From the NCBI GenBank assembly GCA_020059745.1, contig JAGVBK010000002.1:2414-66413 (forward strand): DNA of 64,000 nt, written 5' to 3'. Position numbers and translations under genes: made by a program. The stretch comes from Candidatus Shapirobacteria bacterium (GTDB lineage Bacteria; Patescibacteriota; Microgenomatia; UM-FILTER-40-11). The notes below the pieces were generated by a model. It did no database searches. It was not told the DNA's origin and was given only the letters and a program-made list of their open reading frames with translations. This document shows positions 4,188 through 56,449 of this stretch, piece after piece; within the stretch, counting starts at the first letter, position 1; each line of letters starts with the position of its first letter.

Positions 4188-4820
4188 TTTCATCCGGGAA
4201 GATGTGTCGACAGTAAAAACACAAGTATCTGGAAGAGTGGTTTCTCTTTCGATAACCCTCTCAAAGTTAAAGGGTTTTAATGTATAGGGGTAAGAAAAAG
4301 GAAATGTAGAAATAAGAAATAAACTTTCGTTAGGTCCTGTAATTGCAACTCTTACAAAATCTTTCCTACTCCTCTCAGGAATTTCCAAAGAAAGTTCGTC
4401 TGGTTCTCTAAAAGGGTCTTGCACAACTCTTCTAAACTGTTCAGGGACAACTATGTCATCAAGATAAAGTTTACTGTTATTCATTTTTGTTGCAGTTTTG
4501 TAAACTTCGACTAAAACACTAACTGCTTTTTCTGCGTTTTCTCCTTTCTCCCCGGTATTTAAAATCAAATAGTGTGAGTCAACCTGTCTGCAACCCAACT
4601 CTTTAATATAGCTTCCGGCCCTTAAGTATTTAAGCCCAGGGTTAAACTCTGGTAAAATCAACCTCATGTCGTTAACAAATTGCTTCATGGGCTCGGTTTC
4701 TGAAGGGGTGGGGGATTCGGAAGGACTCACTTGCTCTCCCGCACAGGCGGTCAGTACAACCGCTCCGGCAGCTCCAGCAGCAAATCTAATTAAATCTCTG
4801 CGTGAAATCTTTCTTTCCAT
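4179..4820 (-). CDS. hypothetical Tat-signal lipoprotein; start moved to the internal ATG
   Basis: The track ORF start at 4883 overlaps the tRNA-Lys gene. The internal start MERKISRRDLIRFAAGAAGAVVLTAC carries a twin-arginine motif followed by a lipobox Cys. No recognisable catalytic motifs. Confidence 0.45.
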   Translation of the reverse strand: MERKISRRDLIRFAAGAAGAVVLTACAGEQVSPSESPTPSETEPMKQFVNDMRLILPEFNPGLKYLRAGSYIKELGCRQVDSHYLILNTGEKGENAEKAVSVLVEVYKTATKMNNSKLYLDDIVVPEQFRRVVQDPFREPDELSLEIPERSRKDFVRVAITGPNESLFLISTFPFSYPYTLKPFNFERVIERETTLPDTCVFTVDTSSRMKLL

Positions 4821-4825
4821 ATATG

Positions 4826-4897
4826 TGAGGCTGGAAGGATTCGAACCTTCGGCCAATCGCTTAAGAGGCGACTGCTCTACCACTGAGCTACAGCCCC
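4826..4897 (-). tRNA. tRNA-Lys (anticodon CTT), complete cloverleaf, CCA not encoded
   Basis: The reverse complement reads GGGGCTGTAGCTCAGTGGTAGAGCAGTCGCCTCTTAAGCGATTGGCCGAAGGTTCGAATCCTTCCAGCCTCA. It has a 7-bp acceptor stem (one G-U pair), GTTCGAATC T-loop and anticodon loop CTCTTAA. Confidence 0.85.
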
Positions 4898-5148
4898 AGT
4901 TTCTTTTTAATAAACTCTCTTCCTTTAAATGATTTCAACTCTTTCTCTCTCTTAAGAGCTTCATTCCTTGTCTTTAGCTCTTCGTTATAAACAAGTTCCC
5001 AAGGACCTTGATTTTTATAAGTATAACTCCTCGTTTTGCTTGGCAATACCCGATTATGTCTTAAAAGTCTTTCTTCAATATTGTTCGTCTGGCCAATATA
5101 TATTTTTCCAGAAGTCAAACTTCTAACTACATAAACAAAATATCCCAT
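4888..5148 (-). CDS. GIY-YIG nuclease family protein (small stand-alone, UPF0213-like)
   Basis: MGYFVYVVRSLTSGKIYIGQTNNIEERLLRHN is the canonical GIY-YIG motif (YxYxL..GxxYIGxT...R..EHN). The ORF starts 14 nt downstream of a partial tRNA-Lys copy. Confidence 0.75.
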   Translation of the reverse strand: MGYFVYVVRSLTSGKIYIGQTNNIEERLLRHNRVLPSKTRSYTYKNQGPWELVYNEELKTRNEALKREKELKSFKGREFIKKKLGL

Positions 5149-5161
5149 ATCTTACCCGTTT

Positions 5162-5212
5162 AATCGCTTAAGAGTCCGCCGGCTGGCGGATCTACCACTG
5201 AGCTACAGCCCC
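5162..5212 (-). repeat. partial tRNA-Lys copy 2: acceptor 5' strand and D-arm, a 16-nt GC hairpin insertion, then an anticodon-loop segment; the T-arm and acceptor 3' strand are missing
   Basis: The reverse complement GGGGCTGTAGCTCAGTGGTAGA|TCCGCCAGCCGGCGGA|CTCTTAAGCGATT matches the full tRNA-Lys at 4826-4897 outside the inserted hairpin. It then diverges into the GIY-YIG start. Confidence 0.7.
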
Positions 5213-5220
5213 AAGATAAT

Positions 5221-5460
5221 CTATATTCTGCTTTCTAAAAATCTTCTTCCGAATCCCGTCTTAAAATACTTTTCTCTTTTCAAAGCCTTTTCTTTATTTA
5301 AACAAGCCTCATAATATACCAAACAAAAGGGAATTCTGTTTCTTGTTGATTCAACTAAACCTTTATTATGTTCTTCCACTCTTCTTTTGAGATTATCTGT
5401 GTAACCAACATAAAGATCTGAATCAACTTTACTTTTTAAAACATAAGTGTAATACGTTTG
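5221..5460 (-). CDS. second GIY-YIG nuclease family ORF with no ATG/GTG/TTG start; possible pseudogene or non-canonical initiation
   Basis: The stop-to-stop frame translates QTYYTYVLKSKVDSDLYVGYTDNLKRRVEEHNKGLVES...KREKYFKTGFGRRFLESRI with a full GIY-YIG motif. The first sense codon follows a TAA directly. The ORF is absent from the track because it has no start codon. Confidence 0.5.
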   Translation of the reverse strand, partial: QTYYTYVLKSKVDSDLYVGYTDNLKRRVEEHNKGLVESTRNRIPFCLVYYEACLNKEKALKREKYFKTGFGRRFLESRI

Positions 5461-5477
5461 TTAAAAGTATTTTAAAG

Positions 5478-5547
5478 TACTGCTCTACCTGCCCGCAACG
5501 CCAGCAAGCTGGCTTGCGTGGCGGGCGAGCCACTGAGCTACAGCCCC
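5478..5547 (-). repeat. partial tRNA-Lys copy 3: the 5' half with a roughly 42-nt GC-rich imperfect hairpin inserted at the same D-loop position as in copy 2
   Basis: The reverse complement reads GGGGCTGTAGCTCAGTGG|CTCGCCCGCCACGCAAGCCAGCTTGCTGGCGTTGCGGGCAGG|TAGAGCAGTACTTTAAAATACT. The flanks are identical to tRNA-Lys positions 1-18 and 19-27. Confidence 0.65.
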
Positions 5548-25899: not shown

Positions 25900-27183
25900 A
25901 TGACAGTCGAAAGGTTTATGAAAAAAAAGCAAAATTCAAAAGAAATATCTCTAACAAATCAAAATGAAATATTACAAGCAAAGGTGGACGAAATCCTAAA
26001 TCGTGGAGTTGTAGATATAATTGACAAAGAAAATCTCCAGAGAAGGATGCAAAGTGGAGAAAAACTTCGGATTAAGCTTGGCATTGATCCTACTGGGCCA
26101 AATATTCATATTGGCAGAGGTTCAACTCTTAAAAAACTGAGAGAATTTCAAGAACTTGGACATCAAATTATCTTGATTATTGGAGATGGAACAGCAGTTA
26201 TAGGTGATGCTTCCGACAAAGTTTCTCTTCGCCCAATGTTAACTCCACAACAAATTGCTGAAAACGAAAGAAATTATCTTGAACAAATAGGAAGAATAAT
26301 TGACTTAGATGAAACAGAAATTCATCACAACAGTGAGTGGATAGGAAGACTTACCCCTTCTGAATGGATAAAACTGGCCAGTATTTTTACTGTACAACAA
26401 ATAATCGAGAGAGAGAATTTTGCGGAGAGAATTAAGAGAGGAGACCCTGTTGGCCTTCACGAAACTTTGTATCCTTTACTTCAAGGATGGGATTCTGTGA
26501 ATATTTCAGCCGACCTAGAAATTGGTGGAACAGACCAACTCTTTAACCTGTTGGCGGGTAGAAAAATTCAGGAGCAGTTTGGACAGAAGCCCCAAGATAT
26601 AATGACGTTACAACTGCTAGCCGGAACAGACGGCAGAAAAATGAGCACCAGTTGGGGAAATGTTATTTTGATAATTGACTCTCCCGAAGAAAAGTATGGA
26701 AAAATAATGAGAATTTCCGATCAGCTCATTCCTGTTTATATGGAAATTGCAACAGATATTCCAATGGAAAGAGTCAAAGAAGTTAGAGTGCTCCTCGAAG
26801 AAGATAAAGGAAACCCCATGGATTACAAAAAAGAGCTTGCCTTCAACCTGGTAAAGTTATACGACGGCAGAAAGGCTGCGATAGCCGCGCAGGATCATTT
26901 CGAAAAAATTGTTCAAGAAAAAGAACTTCCCGAGATAATCCCGACATTCACTACTGAAAGTAAAATTGGTATTGATGATTTGGTTACTCTAATGATTAGA
27001 TCAAATATTGTCAAAAGTAAATCTGAAGCTAGACGACTAATAAAACAAGGAGGAGTGAAACTCCAAGATGAAAAAATTGAACTTTCAGAAAAAATAGCAA
27101 TTGTGGTCCCATCTGAAAAAGAAGGAGGGGTAATAATTAGAGCAGGAAAAAGACAATTTCTTAGATTAATATCTAAAAAATAG
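25900..27183 (+). CDS. tyrS: tyrosine--tRNA ligase
   Basis: Class I HIGH-like motif (PNIHIGRG), KMSKS variant KMSTS, and a C-terminal S4-like domain (RRLIKQGGVKLQDEKI). Confidence 0.85.
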   Translation: MTVERFMKKKQNSKEISLTNQNEILQAKVDEILNRGVVDIIDKENLQRRMQSGEKLRIKLGIDPTGPNIHIGRGSTLKKLREFQELGHQIILIIGDGTAVIGDASDKVSLRPMLTPQQIAENERNYLEQIGRIIDLDETEIHHNSEWIGRLTPSEWIKLASIFTVQQIIERENFAERIKRGDPVGLHETLYPLLQGWDSVNISADLEIGGTDQLFNLLAGRKIQEQFGQKPQDIMTLQLLAGTDGRKMSTSWGNVILIIDSPEEKYGKIMRISDQLIPVYMEIATDIPMERVKEVRVLLEEDKGNPMDYKKELAFNLVKLYDGRKAAIAAQDHFEKIVQEKELPEIIPTFTTESKIGIDDLVTLMIRSNIVKSKSEARRLIKQGGVKLQDEKIELSEKIAIVVPSEKEGGVIIRAGKRQFLRLISKK

Positions 27184-27210
27184 ATAACAATTAGAAAGGA
27201 GGTGGAATTA

Positions 27211-27303
27211 ATGTCTGCATTTTTTTACCTGATTAAAGGAATATTCTCGATAAACAAAAAAAGTAGAGAAATTACTTCCTTTATTTCTAGATACCTAAAT
27301 TAA
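27211..27303 (+). CDS. 30-aa ORF, candidate precursor peptide for the downstream radical-SAM enzymes
   Basis: Strong SD AAAGGAGG sits 7 nt upstream. The translation is MSAFFYLIKGIFSINKKSREITSFISRYLN. It ends 3 nt before the first rSAM ORF. No Cys; rich in F/Y/K/R/N. Confidence 0.4.
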   Translation: MSAFFYLIKGIFSINKKSREITSFISRYLN

Positions 27304-27305
27304 AA

Positions 27306-28871
27306 TTGTGCCCGCTCCTCTGTGCAGAAAATAAGGTGTATAAAACACTATTAAATTTTTTTGAAAGAAAATATTGTGTTGTATTTTCTTATTTTCCTCA
27401 AGCTAGAAAATTATTCGACGATTCTTTAAATAATTTTCTACAAAATTTTCCACTTGACACGTCTCACAACACTCTTTTAAAAAATAAATTCACTCTTTTT
27501 CCAATAGTAAATGGATGGATTTCTTCTCATAAAATTAGGCTCTCCAAAGGCTTGCCACCTGATCTTAGTGATTTTACGTATATTGATTTCATTAGTTTTT
27601 TTCACCCTAACAGAAAAGTCAGATTAGCTTCTGATAAATTAAGAAGGAAGCTCGACCTGAATGTTACCTCAATTTGTAACTATAAATGTGAATATTGTTA
27701 TCAAAAAAGTAGAGACGATTGGAAAATAAGAGCTACCCGGGCAAAGGAAACCGAATTAAGTATTCTGGATCTAAAAAAAATAATTTTTGAATCAAGTTTA
27801 CTAGGTGCAAAATATATTAAGATTACTGGAGGAGAACCTTTAACCAAAGAAGGCCTTTTTGATTTAATTGAATATGCAATTAACATAAGAAGTTTGAAAG
27901 AGGTAGAACTCCTTTCTAACGGTTCAATCCTCGCCCTAAAGCTTAATAAACTAAGAAAGTCTATTAAGGGAAACGAGAAGAAATTTCACTTACATTTGTC
28001 AATCGATGGAATATCTAAGGAAGAAAAGAATAATAAGACCTCTATCTCTCACTTAAATAACATTAAAAAAATTATAAGCAGTTTACCGGATATCAAAATA
28101 AGCGTAAATTCAATGTGGTCTGGTTCTATAAGCTACTCACAATTAAAAAAACTTTATTTCATAATGTATAAATATAAAGTTTTCCGATGGACAATAAGTT
28201 TTCCATATCTTGTTAAAACATTAATTGCTGCAGTAAAAGTAAATCCAAATTATACTCCAAAATTTAAAACTGTGGTCCAACTTTCAGAAAAATTAATAAA
28301 ACTACACTCCCAAATGAAAAAACCTTTTAGAATTTCAATTCCGTTAATATATAAGCACGAATTTGATGATTCATTAGCTGAAATTGCCTCGGATGGATTT
28401 GAGGATCATCCCTGTGTCCCATGTCACGGCTCATATTTCATCATTGGGTCAAAGGGTGAGATTCTAGAGTGTTTACTTGCTCCTCCAGGTACTAAAACTA
28501 ATACTAAAACTAGTAACCTTTTAGAATCATTGATAGAAAGTACCGATTCTCCCTTTTATAACCTAAATAAGAGCGATGTTTCTAAAAATTGTAAAGGGTG
28601 CCGGTATGAGATGATGTGTTGTGGACAATGTGTTAATGATAAATCATACAATTTTAGCTACATCTTTAACAAGGAAAATGACTTTGGAAAAGACAAAACA
28701 GCATGTAGCTTGTTGACTCTCTCTGAAAGGTACATTTGGCCTAAGTTGGGCCACAAAGAAAGAAGAAAAATTTTTGCTAGGATCAACAAGAAGGGATTTA
28801 AACCAAACGTTTACAATAACATTTCTGATATGTTATCTGATAAAGAAAATGGAAAGAAAAATAATATTTGA
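27306..28871 (+). CDS. radical SAM enzyme with a C-terminal Cys-rich SPASM/twitch-like domain (start codon uncertain)
   Basis: CNYKCEYC (CX3CX2C) is followed by a glycine-rich SAM motif (IKITGGEP). The C-terminal clusters are ...HPCVPCHGS... and CKGCRYEMMCCGQCVND. About 120 aa precede the rSAM core and could be a peptide-binding domain. The track start is TTG at 27306. Confidence 0.75.
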   Translation: MCPLLCAENKVYKTLLNFFERKYCVVFSYFPQARKLFDDSLNNFLQNFPLDTSHNTLLKNKFTLFPIVNGWISSHKIRLSKGLPPDLSDFTYIDFISFFHPNRKVRLASDKLRRKLDLNVTSICNYKCEYCYQKSRDDWKIRATRAKETELSILDLKKIIFESSLLGAKYIKITGGEPLTKEGLFDLIEYAINIRSLKEVELLSNGSILALKLNKLRKSIKGNEKKFHLHLSIDGISKEEKNNKTSISHLNNIKKIISSLPDIKISVNSMWSGSISYSQLKKLYFIMYKYKVFRWTISFPYLVKTLIAAVKVNPNYTPKFKTVVQLSEKLIKLHSQMKKPFRISIPLIYKHEFDDSLAEIASDGFEDHPCVPCHGSYFIIGSKGEILECLLAPPGTKTNTKTSNLLESLIESTDSPFYNLNKSDVSKNCKGCRYEMMCCGQCVNDKSYNFSYIFNKENDFGKDKTACSLLTLSERYIWPKLGHKERRKIFARINKKGFKPNVYNNISDMLSDKENGKKNNI

Positions 28872-29802
28872 GCTTAAAACAACCTATTATTGCAATCTTT
28901 CTTGCAACTTTTGTGTTTTCTCTAAGAGAAAAAAAGGTAAAAGTTTTATAACCGATAAAGAAATTGAAATAATTTTTCATAGTATTCATAAGAAATATCC
29001 AAAAGTTGATTATTTTATTTATTCAGGAGGAGAACCTACAATAAGACCAAATTTTAAGAAAATTTTTAGTACTGTCCAAGACGTAATCAAACCGAAAGAA
29101 ACAATTGTTCACACAAATGGAATTAAAATCAATAAATTGTTAAGCGCAAAAAATGATTTTGCAATAAATTTTTCTGTTTTTTACTCCTTCCACACAATAA
29201 ATCCAAAAACACATTATAGATTCACTAACTCCAATAAGTTTGCTACGATCAAATCTAATCTATTAAAATTGATAAATAACGGCGTCACGGTTTTTACTAA
29301 TACTGTTGTTATGAAACCTAATCAACATGAAATTGAACAAATTGGAGATTTCTTAGCAAAAAGCAGGGTAAAAGCAATGGAATTTAGGTTCCCTTTTGGA
29401 ACAGAGAGCTTAATCAAGAAAAATCCGTGGATTCTCCCTGATAATTTTATTAGCATTGAAAAACAACTAGCTCGATTAATTACAAAATATTCTGACACTA
29501 TCGATATTTTTATTCATCCATCGGTTCCCTGTCTAATGAAAACAGTAAACACCTTTAACGATGAAGAAAGTATAAAATTAATAGAAGATCAGTCAAAACT
29601 GATATTTAAAAAGAACGTTGATTTTTATAATAAAAAAAATAGATTCATCTTTCTTGACACAAGGATGAGAATAATAACAGGAAATACACAACAAGGAGCA
29701 ATTAATAAGGGGGAAGATATTTTTACGAGAATCAGTTCATGTAGAAGCTGTATTTATAAGAACCTTTGCCTCGGAATCCCCAAAGAATTTCTAATCAAAT
29801 AG
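28849..29802 (+). CDS. second radical SAM / SPASM-like enzyme (start moved to ATG 28849; the track ORF begins at 28774)
   Basis: MERKIIFELKTTYYCNLSCNFCVFS carries CX3CX2C near the N-terminus, followed by YSGGEPT. The C-terminus has ...CRSCIYKNLCLG. It overlaps the 3' end of the preceding rSAM gene by 23 nt. Confidence 0.7.
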   Translation: MERKIIFELKTTYYCNLSCNFCVFSKRKKGKSFITDKEIEIIFHSIHKKYPKVDYFIYSGGEPTIRPNFKKIFSTVQDVIKPKETIVHTNGIKINKLLSAKNDFAINFSVFYSFHTINPKTHYRFTNSNKFATIKSNLLKLINNGVTVFTNTVVMKPNQHEIEQIGDFLAKSRVKAMEFRFPFGTESLIKKNPWILPDNFISIEKQLARLITKYSDTIDIFIHPSVPCLMKTVNTFNDEESIKLIEDQSKLIFKKNVDFYNKKNRFIFLDTRMRIITGNTQQGAINKGEDIFTRISSCRSCIYKNLCLGIPKEFLIK

Positions 29803-30751
29803 CTTGTTTTCCAAAAATAAACTCTTTTATGTTTTGGCCTGCAATCTGTCTAACTACATCAACATAACCAGCCTTAAGTAATTTATTCAAAATAGCAACT
29901 TCGTCCTTGTAAGAAAAATTGACAACGAGTTTCCCGCTTTTATCAGAAAACGAGCCAAAAGGAGCATCTGTTCCCCAAATTAATTTACTACCAATTAGTG
30001 AGTACAAGTTTAATACAACATCAATAACATCCCCATAGTCCAACTCAACAATTCTGGAAGAGAGGTATCTTTCCCTTAAACCCTTGTTCTGTGCAAAATA
30101 ACAGAGGCTAACCAAAGGAGAAGTATCAATATATAAATTTGGCAGGCATGCAACTTTTTCTAAAATTGCTTTATCAAATCCTGCTAAATGAGCCAAGCCG
30201 ACACGAATATTGGGATGGTGTTTTGCGAAAGTGACAACAAGATCTGCTTTTGTATTTTCTTGTTTTCCTGTGTGAAAAATGATTGGAATGTCTTTCTCTT
30301 CAACAATAGACAAAAGCCTATCATCAACATCAGATGGAGTCGATCTTGTGGCTAATGTGTGAATTTTTATTCCAAAAAATTGTCTCTCCAATCTTAAGTA
30401 CTCACATTGTTCCAGCACTTTTTCTTTCGGGTCAAAAGCTAAAAATGGAAAGAAAAAACTATCTGCGTTTTCAATTTTAATCTCTCTTAGTAAAGAGCTA
30501 TTTTCCACCTGATAAGGAAAATCTTCTAAACCCGAAGGCTCCCAACTTCCGAATTTGAGAATTTTTGTTGGGTTATAGTATAGAGTTCCGGGAAAAGGAA
30601 AAATTACTGCTTTAGAAATTCCACCTTCCGATATCTCGCTTATTGTTTCTTTTAAACTGTGAGTCGATGGTATTCTCGGGGTGTAATAATTTAAAAAATC
30701 GATGCCCGTAGCGTGAATGTGAGAATCAATTAACTCAATCTCTTTTCTCAT
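29795..30751 (-). CDS. amidohydrolase-superfamily metal-dependent hydrolase (TIM-barrel)
   Basis: N-terminal IDSHIHA (HxH metal-binding motif), and later His/Asp residues (HTG..., GTDAPFG). Convergent with the rSAM pair; the 3' ends overlap by 8 nt. Confidence 0.55.
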   Translation of the reverse strand: MRKEIELIDSHIHATGIDFLNYYTPRIPSTHSLKETISEISEGGISKAVIFPFPGTLYYNPTKILKFGSWEPSGLEDFPYQVENSSLLREIKIENADSFFFPFLAFDPKEKVLEQCEYLRLERQFFGIKIHTLATRSTPSDVDDRLLSIVEEKDIPIIFHTGKQENTKADLVVTFAKHHPNIRVGLAHLAGFDKAILEKVACLPNLYIDTSPLVSLCYFAQNKGLRERYLSSRIVELDYGDVIDVVLNLYSLIGSKLIWGTDAPFGSFSDKSGKLVVNFSYKDEVAILNKLLKAGYVDVVRQIAGQNIKEFIFGKQAI

Positions 30752-30857
30752 ATAGTAGTGATAAATTTGTTGCTATTTTAGCATAATTAATTTAAATTAA
30801 GGAAATACAAGATATTATCTTGCTATAACAACCAGTAATCCTGGTATAATTTAATAA

Positions 30858-30965
30858 ATGAATTTAACCAAAAAACAAAAAAAACTTTGGACCTTTATTG
30901 TCTTTGTGGCTACAGTCGCTTTAATTCTGACCTCAATGGCACCTTTTCTGACCGCAATTTTTTAA
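30858..30965 (+). CDS. small hydrophobic ORF (35 aa), hypothetical
   Basis: A TATAAT-like -10 lies just upstream. The translation is MNLTKKQKKLWTFIVFVATVALILTSMAPFLTAIF (one TM). Weak evidence. Confidence 0.3.
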   Translation: MNLTKKQKKLWTFIVFVATVALILTSMAPFLTAIF

Positions 30966-30978
30966 AAAGCCTAAGACT

Positions 30979-32991
30979 ATGAATATAAAGGACCCTGTTG
31001 AAAAACTTCCTTTGGTTGGCCCCACTTTTGCCAAAAGGCTTGGCAAACTAAAGATTGAATCCATAGAAGACTTAATAAACCACTTACCCTTTCGCTATGA
31101 TGATTTTTCTCTTATTTCGCCAATTGGCAAAGTTCAGCCAGGTGAAACGGTTACTGTTAAAGGAACAATAGAACAAATCTCAAATGAATACACTAAAAAC
31201 GGCAAAAAGATCCAAAAAGCGGTAATTTCAGACTCAAGCGGTAAAATTGAGGTAATCTGGTTTAATCAGCCCTTTTTAGCAAGAACAATTAAAAAAGGAA
31301 GTCTCTATAATCTTTCCGGTAAAATTGAGTGGTTCGGAAGGCAAAAAGTTCTGCTTTCTCCTGAATATGAGCAACTAAGAGGAGAGACAGGCATTCATAC
31401 CGGAAGGCTGGTGCCTGTTTACCCGGAAACATACGGTATTTCCTCTAAATGGCTGCGCTCCAGAATAAAAACCGCGCTTGAATATTTTAAAGACTCCGTC
31501 GAAGAGTTTCTTCCTCCTGATTTAGTCAGCAAAGAGGGTCTGCTTTCAGAAAAAGAAGCCGTTTCTGAAATTCATTTTCCAAAAAACAAGGAATCTGCTT
31601 TAAAAGCCAGGCACAGACTTTGTTTTGACGAACTTTTTTTAATTCAGCTTGCCGCTTTATTAAGAAAAAAAGAGTGGCAGGAGAAAACCGTAGGAAAAGC
31701 ATTTATTATTGACGAAGAAAAAATTAATGATTTTATCCTTAGTTTGCCTTTTAAACTTACAAGTGCCCAAGAAAGGGTAGTCGGGGAAATTCTTAAAGAC
31801 CTAAGAAAGGCCCAACCCATGAACAGGCTTCTACAAGGCGATGTTGGCAGTGGAAAAACTGTTGTTGCGGCGGTAGCGGTCTTAGCCGCATATTTAAACG
31901 GATACAGTTCCTTAATTATGGCTCCCACAGAAATTCTGGCAAACCAGCACTTTAAAACACTTAGTCAATACCTAAAACCACTAGGCATAGAAGTACGCCT
32001 GGTAACCGGAAGCAGGAAAATGAAGGCAGCCGGGGAAAATCCGGAGGTAGTAGTCGGCACTCATTCTCTTTTGTTCCAGGATTTTGACCCGAAAAAAATT
32101 GGCTTAGTGGTCATAGATGAGCAACACCGCTTTGGGGTGGAACAAAGGTCTGTTTTGGCGGGCAAAGGTGTTTCTCCCCATTTTTTAACCATGACCGCCA
32201 CCCCCATCCCAAGAACAATTGCCTTAACTCTTTTTGGAGATCTTGACTTATCAGTTATTGATGAGCTTCCTCTGGGTAGGATAAAGGTAAAAACTTGGGT
32301 AGTGCCAAAACAAAAAAGGCAAGATGCTTATTCCTGGATCAAGAAAAGAGTCAAAGATACCAAAGAGCAGGCGTTTATTATTTGCCCCCTTATTGAAGAG
32401 TCAGAGTCTCTGGCTTCAGTAAAAGCTGTTAACAAAGAATACGAAATTTTATCAAAAGAGGTCTTTCCGGATCTAAAAATAGGGCTTCTTCACGGACGGA
32501 TAAAGCCGAAAGAAAAAGAAGAAGTTTTAACTAAATTCAGAGAAGGAGAGTATGACCTGCTTTTATCAACGCCTGTCGTTGAAGTGGGGATTGATATTCC
32601 CAACGCTACCATCATGCTTATTGAAGCAGCGGAGCGGTTCGGCCTGGCTCAACTTCACCAGCTTAGGGGAAGAGTTGGCAGAAATAATATGGAATCTTTT
32701 TGCCTTCTTTTTACAGAAAATGAAGTGCTTCCGGTTTTAAGAAGGCTTAAAACTATGGAGCAAACTAATATCGGCATGGAACTTGCAGAAATTGACCTTA
32801 AGCTGAGGGGACCTGGGGAAGTTTACGGCACAAGGCAACATGGTTTTCCTGATCTTAAAGTTGCTTCCTTTGCCGATTTTGGCTTGATTGAAAAAACAAG
32901 AAAGGCAGCCGAGGAAGTCGCCTTAAAAAAATTAGAGCCTCCCTTGCAATCACGCCTGAAAAATTATAAAATAGATTCTGTTACTAATTAA
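30979..32991 (+). CDS. recG: ATP-dependent DNA helicase RecG
   Basis: Wedge domain, helicase motifs GDVGSGKT and DEQHRFGV, and a C-terminal TRG motif region. Confidence 0.9.
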   Translation: MNIKDPVEKLPLVGPTFAKRLGKLKIESIEDLINHLPFRYDDFSLISPIGKVQPGETVTVKGTIEQISNEYTKNGKKIQKAVISDSSGKIEVIWFNQPFLARTIKKGSLYNLSGKIEWFGRQKVLLSPEYEQLRGETGIHTGRLVPVYPETYGISSKWLRSRIKTALEYFKDSVEEFLPPDLVSKEGLLSEKEAVSEIHFPKNKESALKARHRLCFDELFLIQLAALLRKKEWQEKTVGKAFIIDEEKINDFILSLPFKLTSAQERVVGEILKDLRKAQPMNRLLQGDVGSGKTVVAAVAVLAAYLNGYSSLIMAPTEILANQHFKTLSQYLKPLGIEVRLVTGSRKMKAAGENPEVVVGTHSLLFQDFDPKKIGLVVIDEQHRFGVEQRSVLAGKGVSPHFLTMTATPIPRTIALTLFGDLDLSVIDELPLGRIKVKTWVVPKQKRQDAYSWIKKRVKDTKEQAFIICPLIEESESLASVKAVNKEYEILSKEVFPDLKIGLLHGRIKPKEKEEVLTKFREGEYDLLLSTPVVEVGIDIPNATIMLIEAAERFGLAQLHQLRGRVGRNNMESFCLLFTENEVLPVLRRLKTMEQTNIGMELAEIDLKLRGPGEVYGTRQHGFPDLKVASFADFGLIEKTRKAAEEVALKKLEPPLQSRLKNYKIDSVTN

Positions 32992-33052
32992 AAAATCAAA
33001 TTCTGACTACATTTTGCTTAGGATTCAGAATTTAGTGTTTAGAGTTTAAAAG

Positions 33053-33256
33053 ATGACCCCCCTACCAAAAAGACGCTGGTCAACCAGAAGGCAAGGTAAA
33101 AGAAGAGCTACCCATGTTGCGGGAAAGCCCATCATGGTTAAGTGTTCAAACTGCGGAGAATTAAGACAAAGTCATCATGCTTGCCCAAAGTGCGGTTTTT
33201 ACCGGGGTAGGCAAGTCCTACCTGTCGGCAGGCAGGCATTACCAGTAGCCTCATAA
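33053..33256 (+). CDS. rpmF: 50S ribosomal protein L32
   Basis: VKCSNCGELRQSHHACPKCGFYRGRQV is the C4 zinc ribbon typical of L32. The exact start is uncertain. Confidence 0.8.
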   Translation: MTPLPKRRWSTRRQGKRRATHVAGKPIMVKCSNCGELRQSHHACPKCGFYRGRQVLPVGRQALPVAS

Positions 33257-33264
33257 ACGATTAA

Positions 33265-33636
33265 GTGAAAACAAAAAGTGACCCCAGGCACTTAAAAAGA
33301 AGAGAGACTGTCCGCAGCCTCTTTTCCTATATTTTTCAAAAAGAACAACCTCTTTGTCCTCAGGCAAAGGAAGTTGTGTCAAATCTTGATTTTATTGATA
33401 AAGAAATTACCAGCTCAGCCCCTGAATGGCCGCTTGAAAGAATCAATAAAATTGATCTGGCTATACTAAGACTTGCAGTTTATGAACTTTTAATCCAAAA
33501 AAAGGAACCGCCAAAAGTGATTATTGACGAAGCGGTTGAGCTTGCCAAAGAATTCGGCTCGGAAAATTCTGCCGCTTTTATTAACGGTGTACTCGGGAAT
33601 ATACTTAAAATAAGAGAAAATGAACTTACTCAATAA
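33265..33636 (+). CDS. nusB: transcription antitermination factor NusB
   Basis: AILRLAVYELL...IIDEAVELAKEFG...SAAFINGVLGNI. Confidence 0.85.
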   Translation: MKTKSDPRHLKRRETVRSLFSYIFQKEQPLCPQAKEVVSNLDFIDKEITSSAPEWPLERINKIDLAILRLAVYELLIQKKEPPKVIIDEAVELAKEFGSENSAAFINGVLGNILKIRENELTQ

Positions 33637-34324
33637 CACAAACCGTTTAGAGGAAAGTCTTGGAGTAACTTTCGAAAATAAAGAGCTTCTTGAAAGGGCA
33701 ATGACCCACCGTTCTTTTCTTAATGAAGCTAAAAATCCGGAAATTAAGTCAAATGAAAGGCTTGAGTTTTTAGGAGACTCTATTCTTTCTTTTTGGGTTT
33801 CAGAACAGATTTTCAAGGAATTTCCAGATTTGCCCGAAGGAAAGCTTACCCACATAAGAACACATCTGGTGAGAACAGAAACTTTAACAAAACTAGCCCG
33901 AAAACTTAATTTGGGAGAGTTTCTTTTAATGAGCAAGGGTGAAGAATTGGGCGGAGGAAGAGAAAACCCGCTTTTACTGGCCAACTGTTTTGAAGCAGTA
34001 ATTGGAGCAGTCTATCTTGATCAGGGCATTGAAAAAGTTTCTTTGTTTCTTAAAAACAACTTTGAAGATCTGCTTTCACAAATTGATGATGTTGAAGCCT
34101 TAAAAGACAGTAAAAGCCTACTTCAGGAACTCGTCCAGGCAGAAGGGCATCTTTCTCCCGTTTATAAGCTCATTTCTTCTTCAGGCCCTGACCACCAAAA
34201 AGTTTTTACCATGGGTGTCTTTATTGATGAAAGATTAATTGCCCAGGGAACCAGCCGTTCAAAACAAGAAGCAGAAGAAGAGTCAGCCAAGAAGGCGCTT
34301 GAGATTCTGGGTAAAATCAAGTAA
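33620..34324 (+). CDS. rnc: ribonuclease III
   Basis: Signature ERLEFLGDSIL, catalytic E in NCFEAVIGAVYLD, and a C-terminal dsRBD. Confidence 0.9.
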   Translation: MNLLNNTNRLEESLGVTFENKELLERAMTHRSFLNEAKNPEIKSNERLEFLGDSILSFWVSEQIFKEFPDLPEGKLTHIRTHLVRTETLTKLARKLNLGEFLLMSKGEELGGGRENPLLLANCFEAVIGAVYLDQGIEKVSLFLKNNFEDLLSQIDDVEALKDSKSLLQELVQAEGHLSPVYKLISSSGPDHQKVFTMGVFIDERLIAQGTSRSKQEAEEESAKKALEILGKIK

Positions 34325-34336
34325 AATACTAAAACT

Positions 34337-34591
34337 ATGTCTGTAAGTTTAAGACTATCATTAGTTGGAAAAAGAAATCGGCCGATTTATAGAATCGTGG
34401 CCAGCCAAACCCGCTACAAAAGAAACGGTAAAAGCTTGGACCAGCTCGGAGCTTTTAACCCAAACGTTAACCCGCCGATTTTTGAGCTTGACCGCAAAAA
34501 GTTTGAAGAGTGGGTTAAAAAAGGTGCTATTATTTCTACCGGGCTTTATAAACTTTTAAAAGAAAATAACATTCCGCTTCCTATAAAATGA
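34337..34591 (+). CDS. rpsP: 30S ribosomal protein S16
   Basis: MSVSLRLSLVGKRNRPIYRIVA... Confidence 0.9.
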   Translation: MSVSLRLSLVGKRNRPIYRIVASQTRYKRNGKSLDQLGAFNPNVNPPIFELDRKKFEEWVKKGAIISTGLYKLLKENNIPLPIK

Positions 34592-34824
34592 AAGATTTTT
34601 TGTTAAAAATCGTTGCTTTAATCGCCGACAATCCGGAAAATATTGAAATCACTGAAGAAACAGAAGAAAACCTGAAAATTTACACCATTAGTGTTCCTGA
34701 AGAGGAAATGGGCAGGATCATTGGTAAAGGTGGAAAAGTGATAAGCGCGATCAGAAATTTGGCCAGACTAAAAGCAAGCAGAAACAACGAAAAAATTCTG
34801 GTCAGGGTGAACCCTAAAAGTTAA
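34588..34824 (+). CDS. khpA: KH-domain RNA-binding protein (KhpA/YlqC-like)
   Basis: GxxG loop IGKGGKVISAIRNLARL. The rpsP-KH gene order is conserved. Confidence 0.75.
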   Translation: MKDFLLKIVALIADNPENIEITEETEENLKIYTISVPEEEMGRIIGKGGKVISAIRNLARLKASRNNEKILVRVNPKS

Positions 34825-35573
34825 AAAGGAAAGGGATTTTCTTTTCCCACGGTAATGACTTCTTCTCCTTCAGAGGCAGCTAAAGGCTCATACCTCTTAT
34901 AGTTCTTCAAGGTTTCGACTGTTTCTCTGTCCTGGCTTGAAACTTTAGGCAAAGGCTCTTCAGGTTTACCCAAAGTCTTAGGCAGGGGGCCAAAATAACT
35001 CATAATGCTGATTTTCCCGGAAAAATCTGCCAAAGAACCGCTTTCTGTGGCATTGACTGTGCCGAATTTGATGCGGTCAATGGTAACCAAAGGAAGCATT
35101 TTATCAATATTTTCAATCATTGCCTTCAAGTTTTCAAAGGGAGAGTTAAAATCGATTTCAATGGGAAGAGGGGATAGTTTTTTGCTTGCGGACTGAGTTG
35201 ACACTTCACCGGGCGTGAACTTAAAAGCCTCAATAAAAACACCATTTTCAGAAACAATCTGCTTTGACATAACCAAAGTCTGGTAAAAATCTTTTTCTGA
35301 AGGAACAGCGTCAAGAAGAAGCCTGGAATTTTCATAAAGTTCTGCCTCGGAAAGAGAGCTTAACTCGGCCGCTTTTTGGGAAAGTTGGCTTATTGTCTTT
35401 TCCTGTTTTTCAATCTTTTTTCTTGCTTCCTGAATTTGGCGGGTTTTAGGAATAATTAAAAAGACAACTCCCAAAACCACTAAAAAAATTGCCACAAGAG
35501 GAATTAAATACTCCTCCAGTGTTGTTTTTATTTTCTCAGGGTTAATTTTAAAGTCTTTAATGTCTTGACTCAT
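34821..35573 (-). CDS. type IV pilus assembly protein, PilO-like
   Basis: One N-terminal TM, a coiled coil, then a periplasmic domain. Positioned immediately after the pilM/pilN-like genes. Confidence 0.5.
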   Translation of the reverse strand: MSQDIKDFKINPEKIKTTLEEYLIPLVAIFLVVLGVVFLIIPKTRQIQEARKKIEKQEKTISQLSQKAAELSSLSEAELYENSRLLLDAVPSEKDFYQTLVMSKQIVSENGVFIEAFKFTPGEVSTQSASKKLSPLPIEIDFNSPFENLKAMIENIDKMLPLVTIDRIKFGTVNATESGSLADFSGKISIMSYFGPLPKTLGKPEEPLPKVSSQDRETVETLKNYKRYEPLAASEGEEVITVGKENPFPF

Positions 35574-36106
35574 TTCTTAAAATCAAGGTTAATAAAATAT
35601 CTGCCGTCCACAGTCCTGTTTACAGTCTCAAAAACAATTTCCTTATATTTATTCTCGGCTTTTATTTCCTCCACCTTGTTATTTAACTCAGTTAAACAAG
35701 CTACGCCCGCACATCTTCCCTCAATCTTCATATCTCCTTTGGCACCAAAATCCAAACCTGTTATATTCAAATCTTCAACATAAATTTTCTCAAGATCCTG
35801 CATTGAGTTGGCATAAGCTTTTCTGCTTTCAAGAATTGAGTTTACGTGCCTGACTCTGTCTGCAATTGTCACAAGATATGACTCGTTTTTCTCCAAAGCC
35901 TTTATCTGATTCTCCAGGGCAGTGATTTTTTTCCCATTGTTCTTAAACTTCTGGTTTAAAATAATTACAAAGCCAATTACCAGGCAGGCCATAACAATAA
36001 AAACGCCGACAAAAACAAAAGAGGCTGATTTAACCTTTCCTTTTACTTTTTGCTCTTTGGCAATTTTTCTTGCCTCTAAACTGATTAAATTAATACCTTT
36101 GTTCAT
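35570..36106 (-). CDS. type IV pilus assembly protein, PilN-like
   Basis: Short cytoplasmic N-terminus, TM and coiled coil. Follows pilM with a 7-nt gap. Confidence 0.5.
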   Translation of the reverse strand: MNKGINLISLEARKIAKEQKVKGKVKSASFVFVGVFIVMACLVIGFVIILNQKFKNNGKKITALENQIKALEKNESYLVTIADRVRHVNSILESRKAYANSMQDLEKIYVEDLNITGLDFGAKGDMKIEGRCAGVACLTELNNKVEEIKAENKYKEIVFETVNRTVDGRYFINLDFKK

Positions 36107-54125: not shown

Positions 54126-55079
54126 TTATTTTTTAGGTTTTGAAAGGGGATGGAATTTACGGTGAGTCTCTTCGGCGAATCGGTCAGAAGCGTGAACATA
54201 GCGGGTTGTAGTGTCAAGAGACTCATGGCCAAGAAGAATTTGAATCGCTGCCGGACTGGCACCCGACTCTGCCAAGTAAGTGGCAAAGCCATGCCTTAAA
54301 GAATGAGCAGAAGTGGGAACATTAATTTTTAACTTTTGCCGATACTCTTTTATTTTTGCTTGAATGTAGTTTGTAGAAAGCCTTTTTTTTGATTTAGATA
54401 CATTAAGACCGCTGTAAGGAATAAAAAGGGCGTCAAAGGCATCCTGGCGGGTCGCGAGATAGCGTTCTATGATATTTTGGGCCCGAGGGGTTAAATAAAC
54501 AAATCTTTCCTTTTTCCCCTTTCCCAAAACAAAAATTCTGCCGCTGCCGTCAATGTTTGACCGGTTAAGACGGCAAAGTTCGGATATTCTCATTCCGGTT
54601 GAAAAAAGCACTTCCATAATCGCTTGATTTCTTAAGGCCACTAAAGGGTCGTTTTCAAGATAAGCCGGTGATTCAATTAATTTAATAATTTCTTCAAATT
54701 CTGCAACCTGGGGATGACGTTTCTCTGTTTTGACCATCTTTACTGCCTCAGGAGGAATCGGACAAGGCAAGTCCATTTCAATAAGATACTTCAGATAGCT
54801 TCTTAAAGCAGAAAGCATCCTGTTTAGGCTTCTTGAAGATAATGTATCTTGAGATTCTTCTTCTTTTATGGCTGTTTTTCGGTCTTTTGAGGCTAAATAA
54901 GCCTTAAATTGAGCGACTACTCTTTTGTCAACCTTGTCAAGGGGAGTAGAGGAGTCCTCTAAAAATCGGGAAAATACGCTCAAATCACGCTCGTAATTAT
55001 AAATAGTTTCTAAAGAATAATTATTTGTTTTTAAATGAAGAAGGAAATCATCAAAATAAGGCAACATCTTTTTTATCAT
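54126..55079 (-). CDS. xerC: tyrosine recombinase XerC/XerD family
   Basis: An N-terminal SAM-like core-binding domain, then the catalytic motif HSLRHGFATYLAESGASPAAIQILLGHESLDTTTRYVH (R..HxxR..Y). Confidence 0.85.
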   Translation of the reverse strand: MIKKMLPYFDDFLLHLKTNNYSLETIYNYERDLSVFSRFLEDSSTPLDKVDKRVVAQFKAYLASKDRKTAIKEEESQDTLSSRSLNRMLSALRSYLKYLIEMDLPCPIPPEAVKMVKTEKRHPQVAEFEEIIKLIESPAYLENDPLVALRNQAIMEVLFSTGMRISELCRLNRSNIDGSGRIFVLGKGKKERFVYLTPRAQNIIERYLATRQDAFDALFIPYSGLNVSKSKKRLSTNYIQAKIKEYRQKLKINVPTSAHSLRHGFATYLAESGASPAAIQILLGHESLDTTTRYVHASDRFAEETHRKFHPLSKPKK

Positions 55080-55183
55080 ACCAGAGAGCTAGGGGAGAAT
55101 AAATAAAATAAGTTTGTCATAACAAGGGTCCTGCCCCATGAGTCTAGGACTGAGTGTAAGAGATATTATACTCAGTCGATAAC

Positions 55184-55212
55184 ATCATATTGGAAAATCT
55201 TCTTTTTGTCAA
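55184..55212 (-). promoter_or_regulatory. near-consensus sigma70 promoter for xerC (TTGACA, 17-nt spacer, TATGAT on the - strand)
   Basis: The reverse complement of 55207-55212 is TTGACA and of 55184-55189 is TATGAT, with a 17-nt spacer. Downstream (- strand) a 7-bp hairpin ACTGAGT...ACTCAGT lies in the 5' UTR before the xerC ATG at 55079. Confidence 0.45.
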
Positions 55213-55675
55213 CAACCCCCTAGAAAGCCCTAGAAAGGCCGAAAGAGGATAAAGACGGCATTTAATCATTTCCTTCTCCATAATTTGTGCCTCCTTTTTT
55301 TGTTTTTCTTTACAAAAAGCAAGGCTTTTTAAGATCCACCCCCGGGATCTCTAAAGAATCTCTCCTTATGGAAGTTTTGTAAGAAATTTTTTACAGTTAT
55401 CCACAATCGGGAATAAATAACTAGTATCAAACTATATCATTTGTGCGTGATTGGGCTATATGAAGACCAAAACTAGAGAAAACACTTTTTAGCACTTTAA
55501 TAAACTTTTTGCCAGACCGTGAAAAGAACTTATAATATTGTGAAAAGAATGTCCTATAACTATTATAGGCTTTACTATTATAGGATAATTTACCTTTTTA
55601 CCCCTACCCCTCTCCTCTACCCAAAGTTCCGTCAATCTTTTTTAAAAAATTAAAATTTTAAATTAAAAATTGTGG

Positions 55676-56449
55676 TTAACCCCAGGAAGTGTATGAAAGA
55701 AGAATCAAAAGAACTACCAGACCTACGGTAAGGTACTCCTGCACTGTTTTCTTAAAAAGCCTGTCGCTTAGCTTGGCCTGTACAATCCCTAAAGATACAT
55801 AAACAAGCGAGGTCAGAAAAAGCGAGCCGAGAGTAATTGCTGTTGGCCAAAAAGACATAATTAAAGCTATTTCCCCCATTCCTAAAGCAGGAATTAGAGT
55901 ATAAAGTAAAAGTTTCCTGCCAATTTTTTCATCTAAATTTACTGACCAGTTACCGTGGAGAAAAAGTAGAAAGGATGAGATAAAAACCAAAGCTGCATTT
56001 TCATAAAAAGTAAGCCTGAAGGAAAAAATTGTGTCGTAAAGAAGAAACGAGGTAATTAGCGTCAAGAGAAATCCGGCCGCAGACGCAGACCGGAAAAGCT
56101 GAATTGTCCTTATTGAAGCCACGGAAAAGATATTCTCACTGAGAAAAAGCGCATACATTCCCAAAAAGTAAAAGATAATTATCGGAATAGCGGCAATCAG
56201 CGAGCCTGGAAGTAAAAAGTAAAAAAGGCCAATTCCGGCAGTAAATAGAACCGGCAAAATCCAGGACATAAGCCAAACAGGACCTTTTAAGGCTTCCTTA
56301 AGCGACCAAAACGTTAAAGGAATCGGCAGTAAAGAAAGAATGACAATAGCCAAATAGCGATTTTCAATACTTCCAAATTGGATAAAAGAAAGACCTGCGG
56401 TTAGAAGCAGTGAACTAAAGATAAACTTTCTTCTTTTTGTTAAAAACAT
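55676..56449 (-). CDS. hypothetical polytopic membrane protein
   Basis: 257 aa with about 8 TM helices. No motif recognised. Confidence 0.45.
   Translation of the reverse strand: MFLTKRRKFIFSSLLLTAGLSFIQFGSIENRYLAIVILSLLPIPLTFWSLKEALKGPVWLMSWILPVLFTAGIGLFYFLLPGSLIAAIPIIIFYFLGMYALFLSENIFSVASIRTIQLFRSASAAGFLLTLITSFLLYDTIFSFRLTFYENAALVFISSFLLFLHGNWSVNLDEKIGRKLLLYTLIPALGMGEIALIMSFWPTAITLGSLFLTSLVYVSLGIVQAKLSDRLFKKTVQEYLTVGLVVLLILLSYTSWG

Follow-up and report, generated by a model that had tools for sequence, protein, structure and literature searches.

The 64,000-nucleotide stretch of contig JAGVBK010000002.1 from a Candidatus Shapirobacteria bacterium, referred to here as the window, carries directly behind its tyrosyl-tRNA synthetase gene (tyrS) a cassette of one very small open reading frame (ORF), two genes for radical S-adenosylmethionine (radical-SAM) enzymes, rSAM-A and rSAM-B, and an amidohydrolase gene. 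The question raised by this locus is whether these genes make a ribosomally synthesised and post-translationally modified peptide (RiPP), and what the tyrosyl-tRNA synthetase (TyrRS) has to do with it. We think it very probable that the cassette came by horizontal transfer and belongs to a radical-SAM RiPP-like system that is very rare and undescribed, and we are equally confident that the invariant core of this system consists of a peptide of ~30 amino acids, rSAM-A with its helical N-terminal domain, and a TyrRS gene. The 30-codon ORF, the two radical-SAM genes, the convergent amidohydrolase gene and the AT-richness of the segment, all pointed out in a first-pass annotation of the window, were found again at the same positions. 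The parts of the cassette are as follows.

25900-27183, + strand: tyrS, tyrosyl-tRNA synthetase; native housekeeping gene of the Patescibacteria/Thermus type
27192-30857, no strand: inserted module of 3.67 kb, comprising the Shine-Dalgarno (SD) sequence, the peptide gene, rSAM-A, rSAM-B, and the amidohydrolase gene with its upstream region
27194-27202, + strand: SD GAAAGGAGG of the peptide gene, read from the sequence, 8 nt 5' of the ATG
27211-27303, + strand: precursor-like peptide gene, 30 aa, MSAFFYLIKGIFSINKKSREITSFISRYLN, with an amphipathic N-terminal part and the invariant C-terminal T-S-x-x-S-x-Y-L-N
27306-28871, + strand: rSAM-A, radical-SAM/SPASM enzyme of 521 aa; TTG start at 27306, 2 nt past the peptide stop, with an alternative GTG at 27336
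28849-29802, + strand: rSAM-B, second radical-SAM enzyme, overlapping rSAM-A by 23 nt; type-1 cassettes only
29795-30751, - strand: metal-dependent amidohydrolase (PF04909), overlapping rSAM-B by 8 nt; type-1 cassettes only

A conserved peptide gene

Twelve independent loci, the window among them, have an rSAM-A homologue and enough flanking DNA to judge its surroundings, and in all 12 the enzyme is accompanied by an ORF of ~30 codons with the same architecture. Two types of cassette can be told apart: type 1 (window, L002, L095, L096, L097 and L010) and type 2 (L005, L006, L008, L009, L011 and L098). Besides that of the window, the peptides are as follows.

Type 1, L002: MKTFFYFLKGLLFSKQRKEITSLISNYLN
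Type 1, L095: MKSILFLIRGLLFSKKQGEVTSLVSNYLN
Type 1, L097: MKTFFYFLKGLLFSSKRKEVTSLISAYLN
Type 1, L096: MKIFKLFLKGIFSSNQRKELTSIVSNYLN
Type 1, L010: MQKLILFMKGVFISKKSNESTSIVSRYLN
Type 2, L005 (Frankia): ...RVRVTSAGSRYLS
Type 2, L006 and L008: ...LFRSLF[RK]K...GLTTSTASRYLS
Type 2, L009, L011 and L098: ...FFRSLF...TSISSRYLS

The C-terminus T-S-x-x-S-x-Y-L-[N/S]-stop is invariant across the 12 loci, and the peptide gene is the sole ORF of the 64-kb window that ends in S-x-Y-L-[NS]-stop. Pairwise pN/pS values of the gene range from 0.28 to 0.53. Conservation at 12 loci together with pN/pS below 1 argues, beyond chance, that the small ORF is a real gene, which by these sequence comparisons is under purifying selection. 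A GGAGG-type SD lies 5' of the ORF at most of the other loci, and the conservation seen between tyrS and rSAM-A is at the amino-acid level, with many synonymous changes. The earlier suspicion that this ORF was more than a chance reading frame is borne out by its synteny: conserved and SD-driven, the gene goes with the radical-SAM/SPASM enzyme at every locus.

We also noticed that in L002 (4120-4156), L095 (2175-2207) and L097 (2410-2443) the last tyrS codons (...[KE]GGE-stop) hold the GGAGG SD of the peptide gene, and that the tyrS frame in these three loci is extended relative to cassette-free TyrRSs. In the two Bacteroidota loci (L009, 4505-4570; L011, 5884-5950) a GC-rich hairpin with a T-run, resembling a terminator, lies between the peptide gene and tyrS; it could set a high ratio of peptide to enzyme transcripts, or act as an attenuator.

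Such a hairpin would also be in keeping with the small ORF being a cis-acting leader or arrest peptide in the manner of TnaC or SpeFL, perhaps sensing tyrosine, with the radical-SAM enzymes acting on a non-peptide substrate, for example a nucleotide. The conserved residues do reach the stop codon, as a rule the ORF is found 14-52 nt 5' of rSAM-A or just 5' of tyrS, and the best NCBIfam matches of both radical-SAM enzymes, MoaA and viperin, act on nucleotides. We nevertheless consider a leader very unlikely. The peptide gene of Frankia (L005) points away from its neighbours, tyrS included, and lies 5' of no cassette gene, which argues for a trans-acting product and not for a cis-acting leader; the ORF has a single conserved Tyr codon and no run of them; the MoaA and viperin scores (64 vs 284 and 49 vs 180 bits) are generic; and the full SPASM domain and SuiB-like fold of rSAM-A, described below, indicate a peptide substrate.

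Association with tyrosyl-tRNA synthetase

The first-pass annotation had taken tyrS as a mere flank of the cassette. This does not hold: a TyrRS gene stands beside the cassette in 12/12 loci and is its most conserved partner, and in an all-against-all comparison of ORFs across the loci the only genes in common are those of the cassette. The association persists through at least six gene orders, listed here with pep for the peptide gene, A for rSAM-A, B for rSAM-B and C for the amidohydrolase gene.

L002, L095 and L097: tyrS > pep > A > B > C; the window has the same order with C convergent
L010: pep > A > B > tyrS > C, with tyrS inside the cassette
L096: < tyrS pep > A > B > < tyrS, with two TyrRS genes
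L006 and L008: A > < unk < P-loop < tyrS < pep
L005: as in L006 and L008, with the peptide gene divergent
L009 and L011: pep > tyrS > A > P-loop > unk
L098: pep > A > P-loop > unk > tyrS

Three kinds of TyrRS take part, namely the Thermus/Patescibacteria kind in genomes of the candidate phyla radiation (CPR), the canonical Bacillus/E. coli kind in type 2, and an archaeal kind in L096. The window TyrRS matches TIGR00234 at 320 bits (cutoff 113.8), has 7943 homologues, mostly from Patescibacteria, and carries the HIGR and KMSTS motif variants typical of its lineage, which recur in L101, a CPR locus that has no such cassette. The type-2 enzymes (TIGR00234, 360 bits) carry HxGN and KFGKS; all six of them (L005, L006, L008, L009, L011 and L098) have H-x-G-N where the aligned solved TyrRS structures have H-x-G-H, a change that could be an adaptation. 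The TyrRSs of L010 and L096 are 35-37% identical to that of the window and their rSAM-A proteins 45-50% identical; this lower identity of the synthetases implies that the cassette joined different tyrS genes more than once. On the CPR-like contig of L096, a bacterial-type and an archaeal/eukaryotic-type TyrRS gene (PRK08560, 388 bits) occur together (263-1450 and 4358-5482, both on the - strand) and flank the peptide, rSAM-A and rSAM-B genes, and the contig has no amidohydrolase gene.

What the synthetase contributes can be read in more than one way. It could be a biosynthetic partner, in which case the pathway would use Tyr-tRNA(Tyr) or Tyr-AMP, for example to add Tyr as in pearlin- or valanimycin-type steps, and the linked tyrS would secure supply or co-expression. 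Dependence on tRNA, as in valanimycin, is given in the preprint on tiarins (10.64898/2025.12.02.691738) as the other known reason for an aminoacyl-tRNA synthetase (aaRS) gene in a cluster. By their sequences the linked TyrRSs appear to be normal catalysts, their Tyr- and ATP-binding residues lining up with those of TyrRSs of known structure; that of the window is a housekeeping protein without sign of adaptation, and the insertion right behind tyrS, with no predicted terminator in between, fits a need for co-expression. On the other side, no aminoacyl-tRNA transferase fold (Fem/GNAT, LanB/PEARL or cyclodipeptide synthase) was detected in either cassette type, the only enzyme common to both types is rSAM-A, and we know of no radical-SAM enzyme that uses aminoacyl-tRNA. 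The cassettes also lack a dedicated tRNA: ARAGORN finds none within any cassette and only a few tRNA genes in the flanks, which likewise gives no hint of a pyl-like expansion of the code. A partner role would moreover leave the invariance of the genetically encoded Tyr unexplained, and we judge it unlikely, although it deserves to be kept in mind. A search of the tyrS-rSAM-A interval for structured RNA such as a T-box returned only Rfam noise.

The radical-SAM enzymes and the amidohydrolase

The N-termini of rSAM-A homologues align slightly better with the GTG start at 27336 than with the TTG at 27306, and the start is uncertain. The protein carries CNYKCEYC at residues 124-131 and matches PF04055 at 51.7 bits (cutoff 29.5). 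Its C-terminal part shows the 7-Cys SPASM pattern (C373-x10-G-x4-C389; C429-x2-C-x5-C-x3-C442; C467) plus C370, and in an alignment of 15 homologues the CX3CX2C motif and all SPASM Cys and Gly residues are invariant. Pfam PF13186 has no match in rSAM-A at E<=1, and the assignment to SPASM proteins is based on the Cys motif and on the similarity in fold to SuiB and PqqE. rSAM-B carries CNLSCNFC at residues 15-22 and matches PF04055 at 66.1 bits (cutoff 29.5); its C-terminal HPSVPC...CRSCIYKNLC, that is, C...CX2CX5C, forms one auxiliary-cluster motif of the twitch-like kind and not a full SPASM domain. Of the tandem SPASM-type enzymes proposed at first, rSAM-A therefore retains that description and rSAM-B does not.

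Pfam recognises only the generic Radical_SAM domain in the two proteins, and none of the NCBIfam families considered reaches its curated cutoff. MoaA GTP 3',8-cyclase (TIGR02666, cutoff 284 bits) scores 64.2 and 61.9 bits for the two enzymes over the radical-SAM core only, anaerobic sulfatase-maturating enzyme (TIGR03942, cutoff 349) scores 40.8 for rSAM-A and 41.3 for rSAM-B, and prokaryotic viperin (pVip, NF038283, cutoff 180) scores 48.9 and 33.3; MftC (TIGR03962, cutoff 265) and PapB (cutoff 340) score 39 and 45 bits, and PqqE is not among the best 25 NCBIfam matches listed. The domain search thus places the enzymes in no non-RiPP family, be it sulfatase maturation (41 of 349 bits) or MoaA (64 of 284), and leaves the first suggestion of peptide modification intact.

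The AlphaFold2 model of rSAM-A (pTM 0.85, mean pLDDT 78) has as its best match in the PDB the streptide maturase SuiB (E 8e-10), with further matches to MoaA, SkfB, PqqE, BlsE and EpeE. That SuiB, SkfB and PqqE are among the nearest solved folds agrees, as far as a predicted model can, with the earlier reading of rSAM-A as a peptide maturase. An N-terminal extension of ~115 aa, which had been proposed as a peptide-recognition element, is indeed present; the model folds residues 1-115 into seven helices and has no beta-strand there, which is not the winged helix that such an element would canonically have.

The amidohydrolase matches PF04909 at 48.2 bits (gathering cutoff 26.4), and its residues H11, H13, K129, H160, H188 and D262, which we take to be the metal-site signature of amidohydrolases, are invariant in 5 orthologues. 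Its gene is convergent in the window and co-directional elsewhere. No close solved structure was found for the protein, and a single-sequence AlphaFold2 model was discarded (pLDDT 44).

An enzyme set of this kind also brings to mind an ordinary radical-SAM RiPP, or a cofactor or signal like pyrroloquinoline quinone (PQQ) or mycofactocin, built on the C-terminal Tyr, with the tyrS link reflecting regulation from the tyrS promoter or mere history. PQQ and mycofactocin are made from Tyr-containing peptides by SPASM enzymes and a hydrolase, without exporters, and no exporter is conserved here either; weak full-length matches of rSAM-A to maturases of the MftC, PqqE and PapB type point the same way. 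The two known pathways have an MftB or PqqD partner and a precursor with a C-terminal Gly-Val-Tyr or an E-x3-Y motif; membership in them is contradicted by the absence of a PqqD-like gene and by a peptide that ends in Y-L-N/S, and the family scores are poor (MftC 39 vs 265 bits; PqqE outside the top matches listed). Above all, a 12/12 linkage to TyrRS through three types of synthetase, at least six gene orders, several phyla and mobile islands would be very hard to obtain by history or regulation alone, and we consider this explanation decidedly improbable.

Two cassette types and their hosts

Type 1 occurs in CPR-like genomes, has a peptide ending in Asn, and adds rSAM-B, which is present in the window, L002, L095, L096, L097 and L010 only, and the amidohydrolase. 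Type 2 has a peptide ending in Ser and adds an HprK-like P-loop protein and a second protein. The former (~270-300 aa) weakly resembles HPr kinase in its H-x-x-x-V...G-x-x-x-x-GK[TS] region; the latter (~340 aa) has an invariant Q-x-x-D-x-x-x-YP-x-x-GGGACP and matches nothing known. The first picture of a two-enzyme cassette consequently needs to be amended: rSAM-A is universal, and only one of the two types has rSAM-B and the amidohydrolase. The last residue of the peptide, N or S, co-varies with the set of tailoring genes, and this co-variation between sequences suggests that tailoring acts at the peptide C-terminus.

The hosts comprise CPR bacteria, Frankia, Bacteroidota and integrase-bearing islands, and one member of the family is assigned to a metagenome-assembled genome of Methanosarcinales. 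That the window comes from a CPR bacterium, as first supposed, agrees with an identical protein listed by NCBI under Candidatus Microgenomates. Type-2 cassettes are found on mobile DNA. The same integrase island at tRNA-Met, with the type-2 cassette on board, was found in two chromosomal contexts within one metagenome (L006, 6317-8000; L007, 5128-6805), from which it follows that the cassette is mobile cargo. In L008, ArdA and TIR genes are nearby, and in Frankia the cassette lies between MmeI-type restriction-modification and SNF2 genes.

Surroundings of this kind raise the possibility of anti-phage defence, for example by a viperin-like nucleotide modifier coupled to TyrRS and carried in defence islands. 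Type-2 loci do lie among restriction-modification, SNF2, TIR, ArdA and integrase genes, and the PADLOC pVip models match both radical-SAM enzymes with E values of 1e-11 to 1e-15 (43-53 bits). These matches span the generic radical-SAM core only, however (NF038283 49 vs 180 bits), no other PADLOC model matches, and bacteriocin and RiPP clusters ride mobile elements just as well. A conserved peptide with an invariant C-terminus is, to our knowledge, a feature of no defence system. We rate defence as the least probable of the explanations weighed here.

Acquisition of the cassette in the window

The history of the window cassette can be read from L099/L100, a close relative with a TyrRS that aligns at 85-86% identity, in which a PBP gene on the - strand, tyrS, a 35-aa ORF, recG, L32, nusB, rnc and onward occur without the cassette. 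By blastn, L099 1057-2234 corresponds to window 26005-27182 and L099 2243-7306 to window 30867-36000, with nothing between. Window ~27192-30857 (3,666 bp) is an insertion that begins a few bases past the tyrS stop codon; its limits were read by eye from the junction sequences. The composition is anomalous as well, with a GC of 0.303-0.304 for the three 1-kb bins that span 27 to 30 kb and of 0.396 +/- 0.025 for the rest of the window (z ~-3.7), GC at third codon positions (GC3) of 0.25-0.28 against 0.37, and an overall GC of 0.312 for the insert against 0.396 elsewhere. An empty site in a relative together with this composition indicates horizontal acquisition. The first reading had suggested as much from composition, which the GC and codon figures bear out (GC ~0.30 vs 0.396), and the empty site now demonstrates it directly.

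No terminator-like site is predicted between tyrS and the peptide gene of the window, and the cassette is therefore probably co-transcribed with tyrS. The window tyrS is closest to the cassette-free relative's gene in every quarter, with residues 180-287 and the catalytic core 100% identical, and its low GC3 is also found in the relative's gene. Entry of the cassette by recombination within tyrS (homology-facilitated integration) was considered and rejected, as this comparison gives no mosaic signal. Searches of plasmid and phage collections returned no match to the family. As listed, the tyrS ORF encodes 427 aa with a ~25-residue N-terminal extension (25900-25980) that is absent from the relative's 400-aa protein, and the true start may lie downstream of 25900.

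Proposed function and relation to known systems

Of the aromatic residues in the core, Tyr alone is invariant, and the aaRS linked to the cassette is TyrRS at every locus. Because the core residue matches the encoded synthetase, as in the tiarin rule and in the logic of microcin C, we propose a TyrRS-directed product, a chain of steps that we hold as a whole only tentatively, at somewhat less than even confidence. The peptide would be translated from its strong SD and bound by rSAM-A through its amphipathic N-terminal part, serving as a leader. By 5'-deoxyadenosyl radical chemistry and two auxiliary clusters, rSAM-A would then modify the C-terminal Y-L-N/S, the likeliest outcome being a cross-link or other change at the invariant Tyr. 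Type-specific enzymes, namely rSAM-B and the amidohydrolase where the peptide ends in Asn, and the HprK-like kinase and the second protein where it ends in Ser, would tailor or release the C-terminal unit. The product would be a Tyr-bearing ligand of TyrRS, probably an inhibitor, and the linked TyrRS would be a protected or co-expressed target: on mobile elements an additional copy, and in CPR bacteria the native enzyme, insensitive by nature. That the chemistry forms a cyclophane or other cross-link is a guess, to which the sequence Y-L-N/S would be suited as an aromatic-X-X three-residue motif.

Several observations weigh against this proposal. In the all-against-all comparison of ORFs, the cassettes share neither an exporter gene nor a GNAT or other immunity gene. 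The window TyrRS is native, and its core, being 100% identical to that of the cassette-free relative, is not an adapted resistant allele. Immunity acting in trans does not itself explain an insertion exactly behind the native tyrS. A dedicated clade of type-2 TyrRSs was looked for and given up, the group not being exclusive relative to the TyrRSs of Bacillus and Mycobacterium. Finally, the rSAM-A model has no canonical PqqD-like winged helix of a RiPP recognition element, and no cassette protein matches PqqD; some radical-SAM RiPP maturases function without such an element, and its lack here lowers but does not exclude membership among them. The missing exporter and GNAT genes, the unadapted CPR TyrRS and the exact insertion site together keep alive the alternative in which TyrRS is a partner or secures supply.

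The closest precedent for the TyrRS-directed product is found in the tiarins, whose clusters (TfxB/TfxC) often encode an aaRS with a specificity that always matches the residue before the conserved core-peptide Gln (10.64898/2025.12.02.691738). Among them, trifolitoxin (TFX), once taken up and trimmed, inhibits ArgRS, immunity is proposed to come from the cluster aaRS, and some housekeeping aaRSs are intrinsically resistant; for indolmycin and valanimycin, aaRS genes in the small-molecule clusters are ascribed to self-resistance or supply (10.64898/2025.12.02.691738). The same preprint (10.64898/2025.12.02.691738) mentions neither TyrRS nor radical SAM. Our system shares with tiarins the short SD-driven precursor, an aaRS that matches a conserved core residue (here Tyr and TyrRS), and an occurrence in distant phyla. 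It differs in that domain searches of the window and related loci find no TfxB/TfxC dehydrogenases, which depend on flavin mononucleotide, and in that the peptides lack an invariant Gln, a radical-SAM/SPASM protein serves as the core enzyme and there is no GNAT or exporter; in CPR bacteria, moreover, the aaRS is a native housekeeping gene and not a demonstrated second copy.

With the radical-SAM RiPP maturases (SuiB of streptide, SkfB, PqqE, MftC, PapB, DynA and the three-residue cyclophane enzymes) rSAM-A shares the CX3CX2C motif, the 7-Cys SPASM pattern, an adjacent precursor gene and, in SuiB, its best structural match, and the C-terminal aromatic-X-X resembles motifs of the cyclophane type. 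In contrast to them, it comes near the cutoff of no family model and has an all-helical N-terminal domain in place of a PqqD-like recognition element. We know of no linkage to an aaRS in any of these named systems. Microcin C likewise is a small ribosomal peptide, and here too an aaRS-directed warhead would arise from the C-terminal part; type-1 peptides even end in Asn like MccA. The loci have, however, no MccB/ThiF-like adenylyltransferase, MccC exporter or MccE/F immunity genes, and the matching residue is internal (Tyr, position -3) and not C-terminal. The physical link between an extra aaRS gene and a biosynthetic cassette, on mobile elements too, is a trait shared with small-molecule clusters such as those of mupirocin, albomycin and agrocin 84, all of which are non-ribosomal or small-molecule pathways and not, as here, a ribosomal peptide with a radical-SAM enzyme.

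We thus see it as conceivable, though short of probable, that these loci represent a second class of ribosomal peptides aimed at or dependent on an aaRS, enzymatically unrelated to tiarins and microcin C, in which either a TyrRS warhead is made by radical-SAM/SPASM chemistry or TyrRS takes part in the pathway. It belongs to the same joint reading, and shares its tentative standing, that peptide, radical-SAM enzyme and TyrRS are passed on as a unit among CPR bacteria, Actinobacteria, Bacteroidota and possibly archaea. Should the TyrRS link prove functional, the product would be a new natural chemotype against an essential, druggable enzyme, found by the simple genomic rule that the aaRS of a cluster matches the invariant residue of its precursor. 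If true, it would also mean that the logic of the tiarins arose independently with different enzymology, and would give CPR/Patescibacteria a defined natural-product-like system, of which they have very few. The system is small, with a 30-aa peptide and one to three enzymes. CPR bacteria are episymbionts with minimal genomes, and the retention of 3.7 kb of accessory DNA in such a genome implies a real benefit.

Rarity and family boundaries

Only 16 homologues of rSAM-A were found among 5.8 billion protein clusters, and rSAM-B had only 4 matches in the same collection. The family as a whole comprises about 6-12 clusters in a set of 1.84 billion representatives, an exhaustive profile search of which gave ~6 full-length rSAM-A clusters (50% identity) above 490 bits, some fragments and, at 200-290 bits, three remote relatives; below these, scores fall to ~155 bits, where ~380-aa SPASM proteins without the N-terminal domain appear. 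These nearest sister proteins match no curated family either, and among the curated families of NCBIfam, Pfam and PADLOC there is none for rSAM-A, rSAM-B or the peptide. Full-text searches of the literature returned no description of a TyrRS-linked radical-SAM peptide system. New are the combination of a radical-SAM RiPP-like system with an aaRS link and its presence in CPR bacteria; each kind is known separately. There is a substantial chance that the system will define a new class once its chemistry is known.

A metagenome scan with degenerate patterns recovered only generic radical-SAM genes at 19-36% identity. Three matches from genome scans (L012-L014) were set aside; L013, the one inspected, matched inside an unrelated enzyme-like ORF. 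The CPR locus L101 (4733-13165) was also rejected as a member, as it has no matching peptide and shows no orthology, and it represents a different cluster. Its tyrS is flanked by a different PF04909 amidohydrolase gene, near genes for a radical-SAM/SPASM protein, an aminotransferase and an APH-type kinase, and another protein encoded there shares its GxxxSGKTS P-loop with the type-2 accessory protein; no peptide of the Y-L-N/S kind was found. L101 may be a further tyrS-associated cluster.

Other features of the window

Two other bins of low GC, at window 55001-56000 (0.343) and 63001-64000 (0.301) against the average of 0.396, may be further acquired segments. Between the insertion and recG lies a 35-aa ORF, MNLTKKQKKLWTFIVFVATVALILTSMAPFLTAIF, at window 30858-30965 (+ strand), which is kept in the cassette-free L099 as MRLTKKQKKLWTFIVFVATVALILTSMAPFLTAIF and is probably a real small membrane protein.

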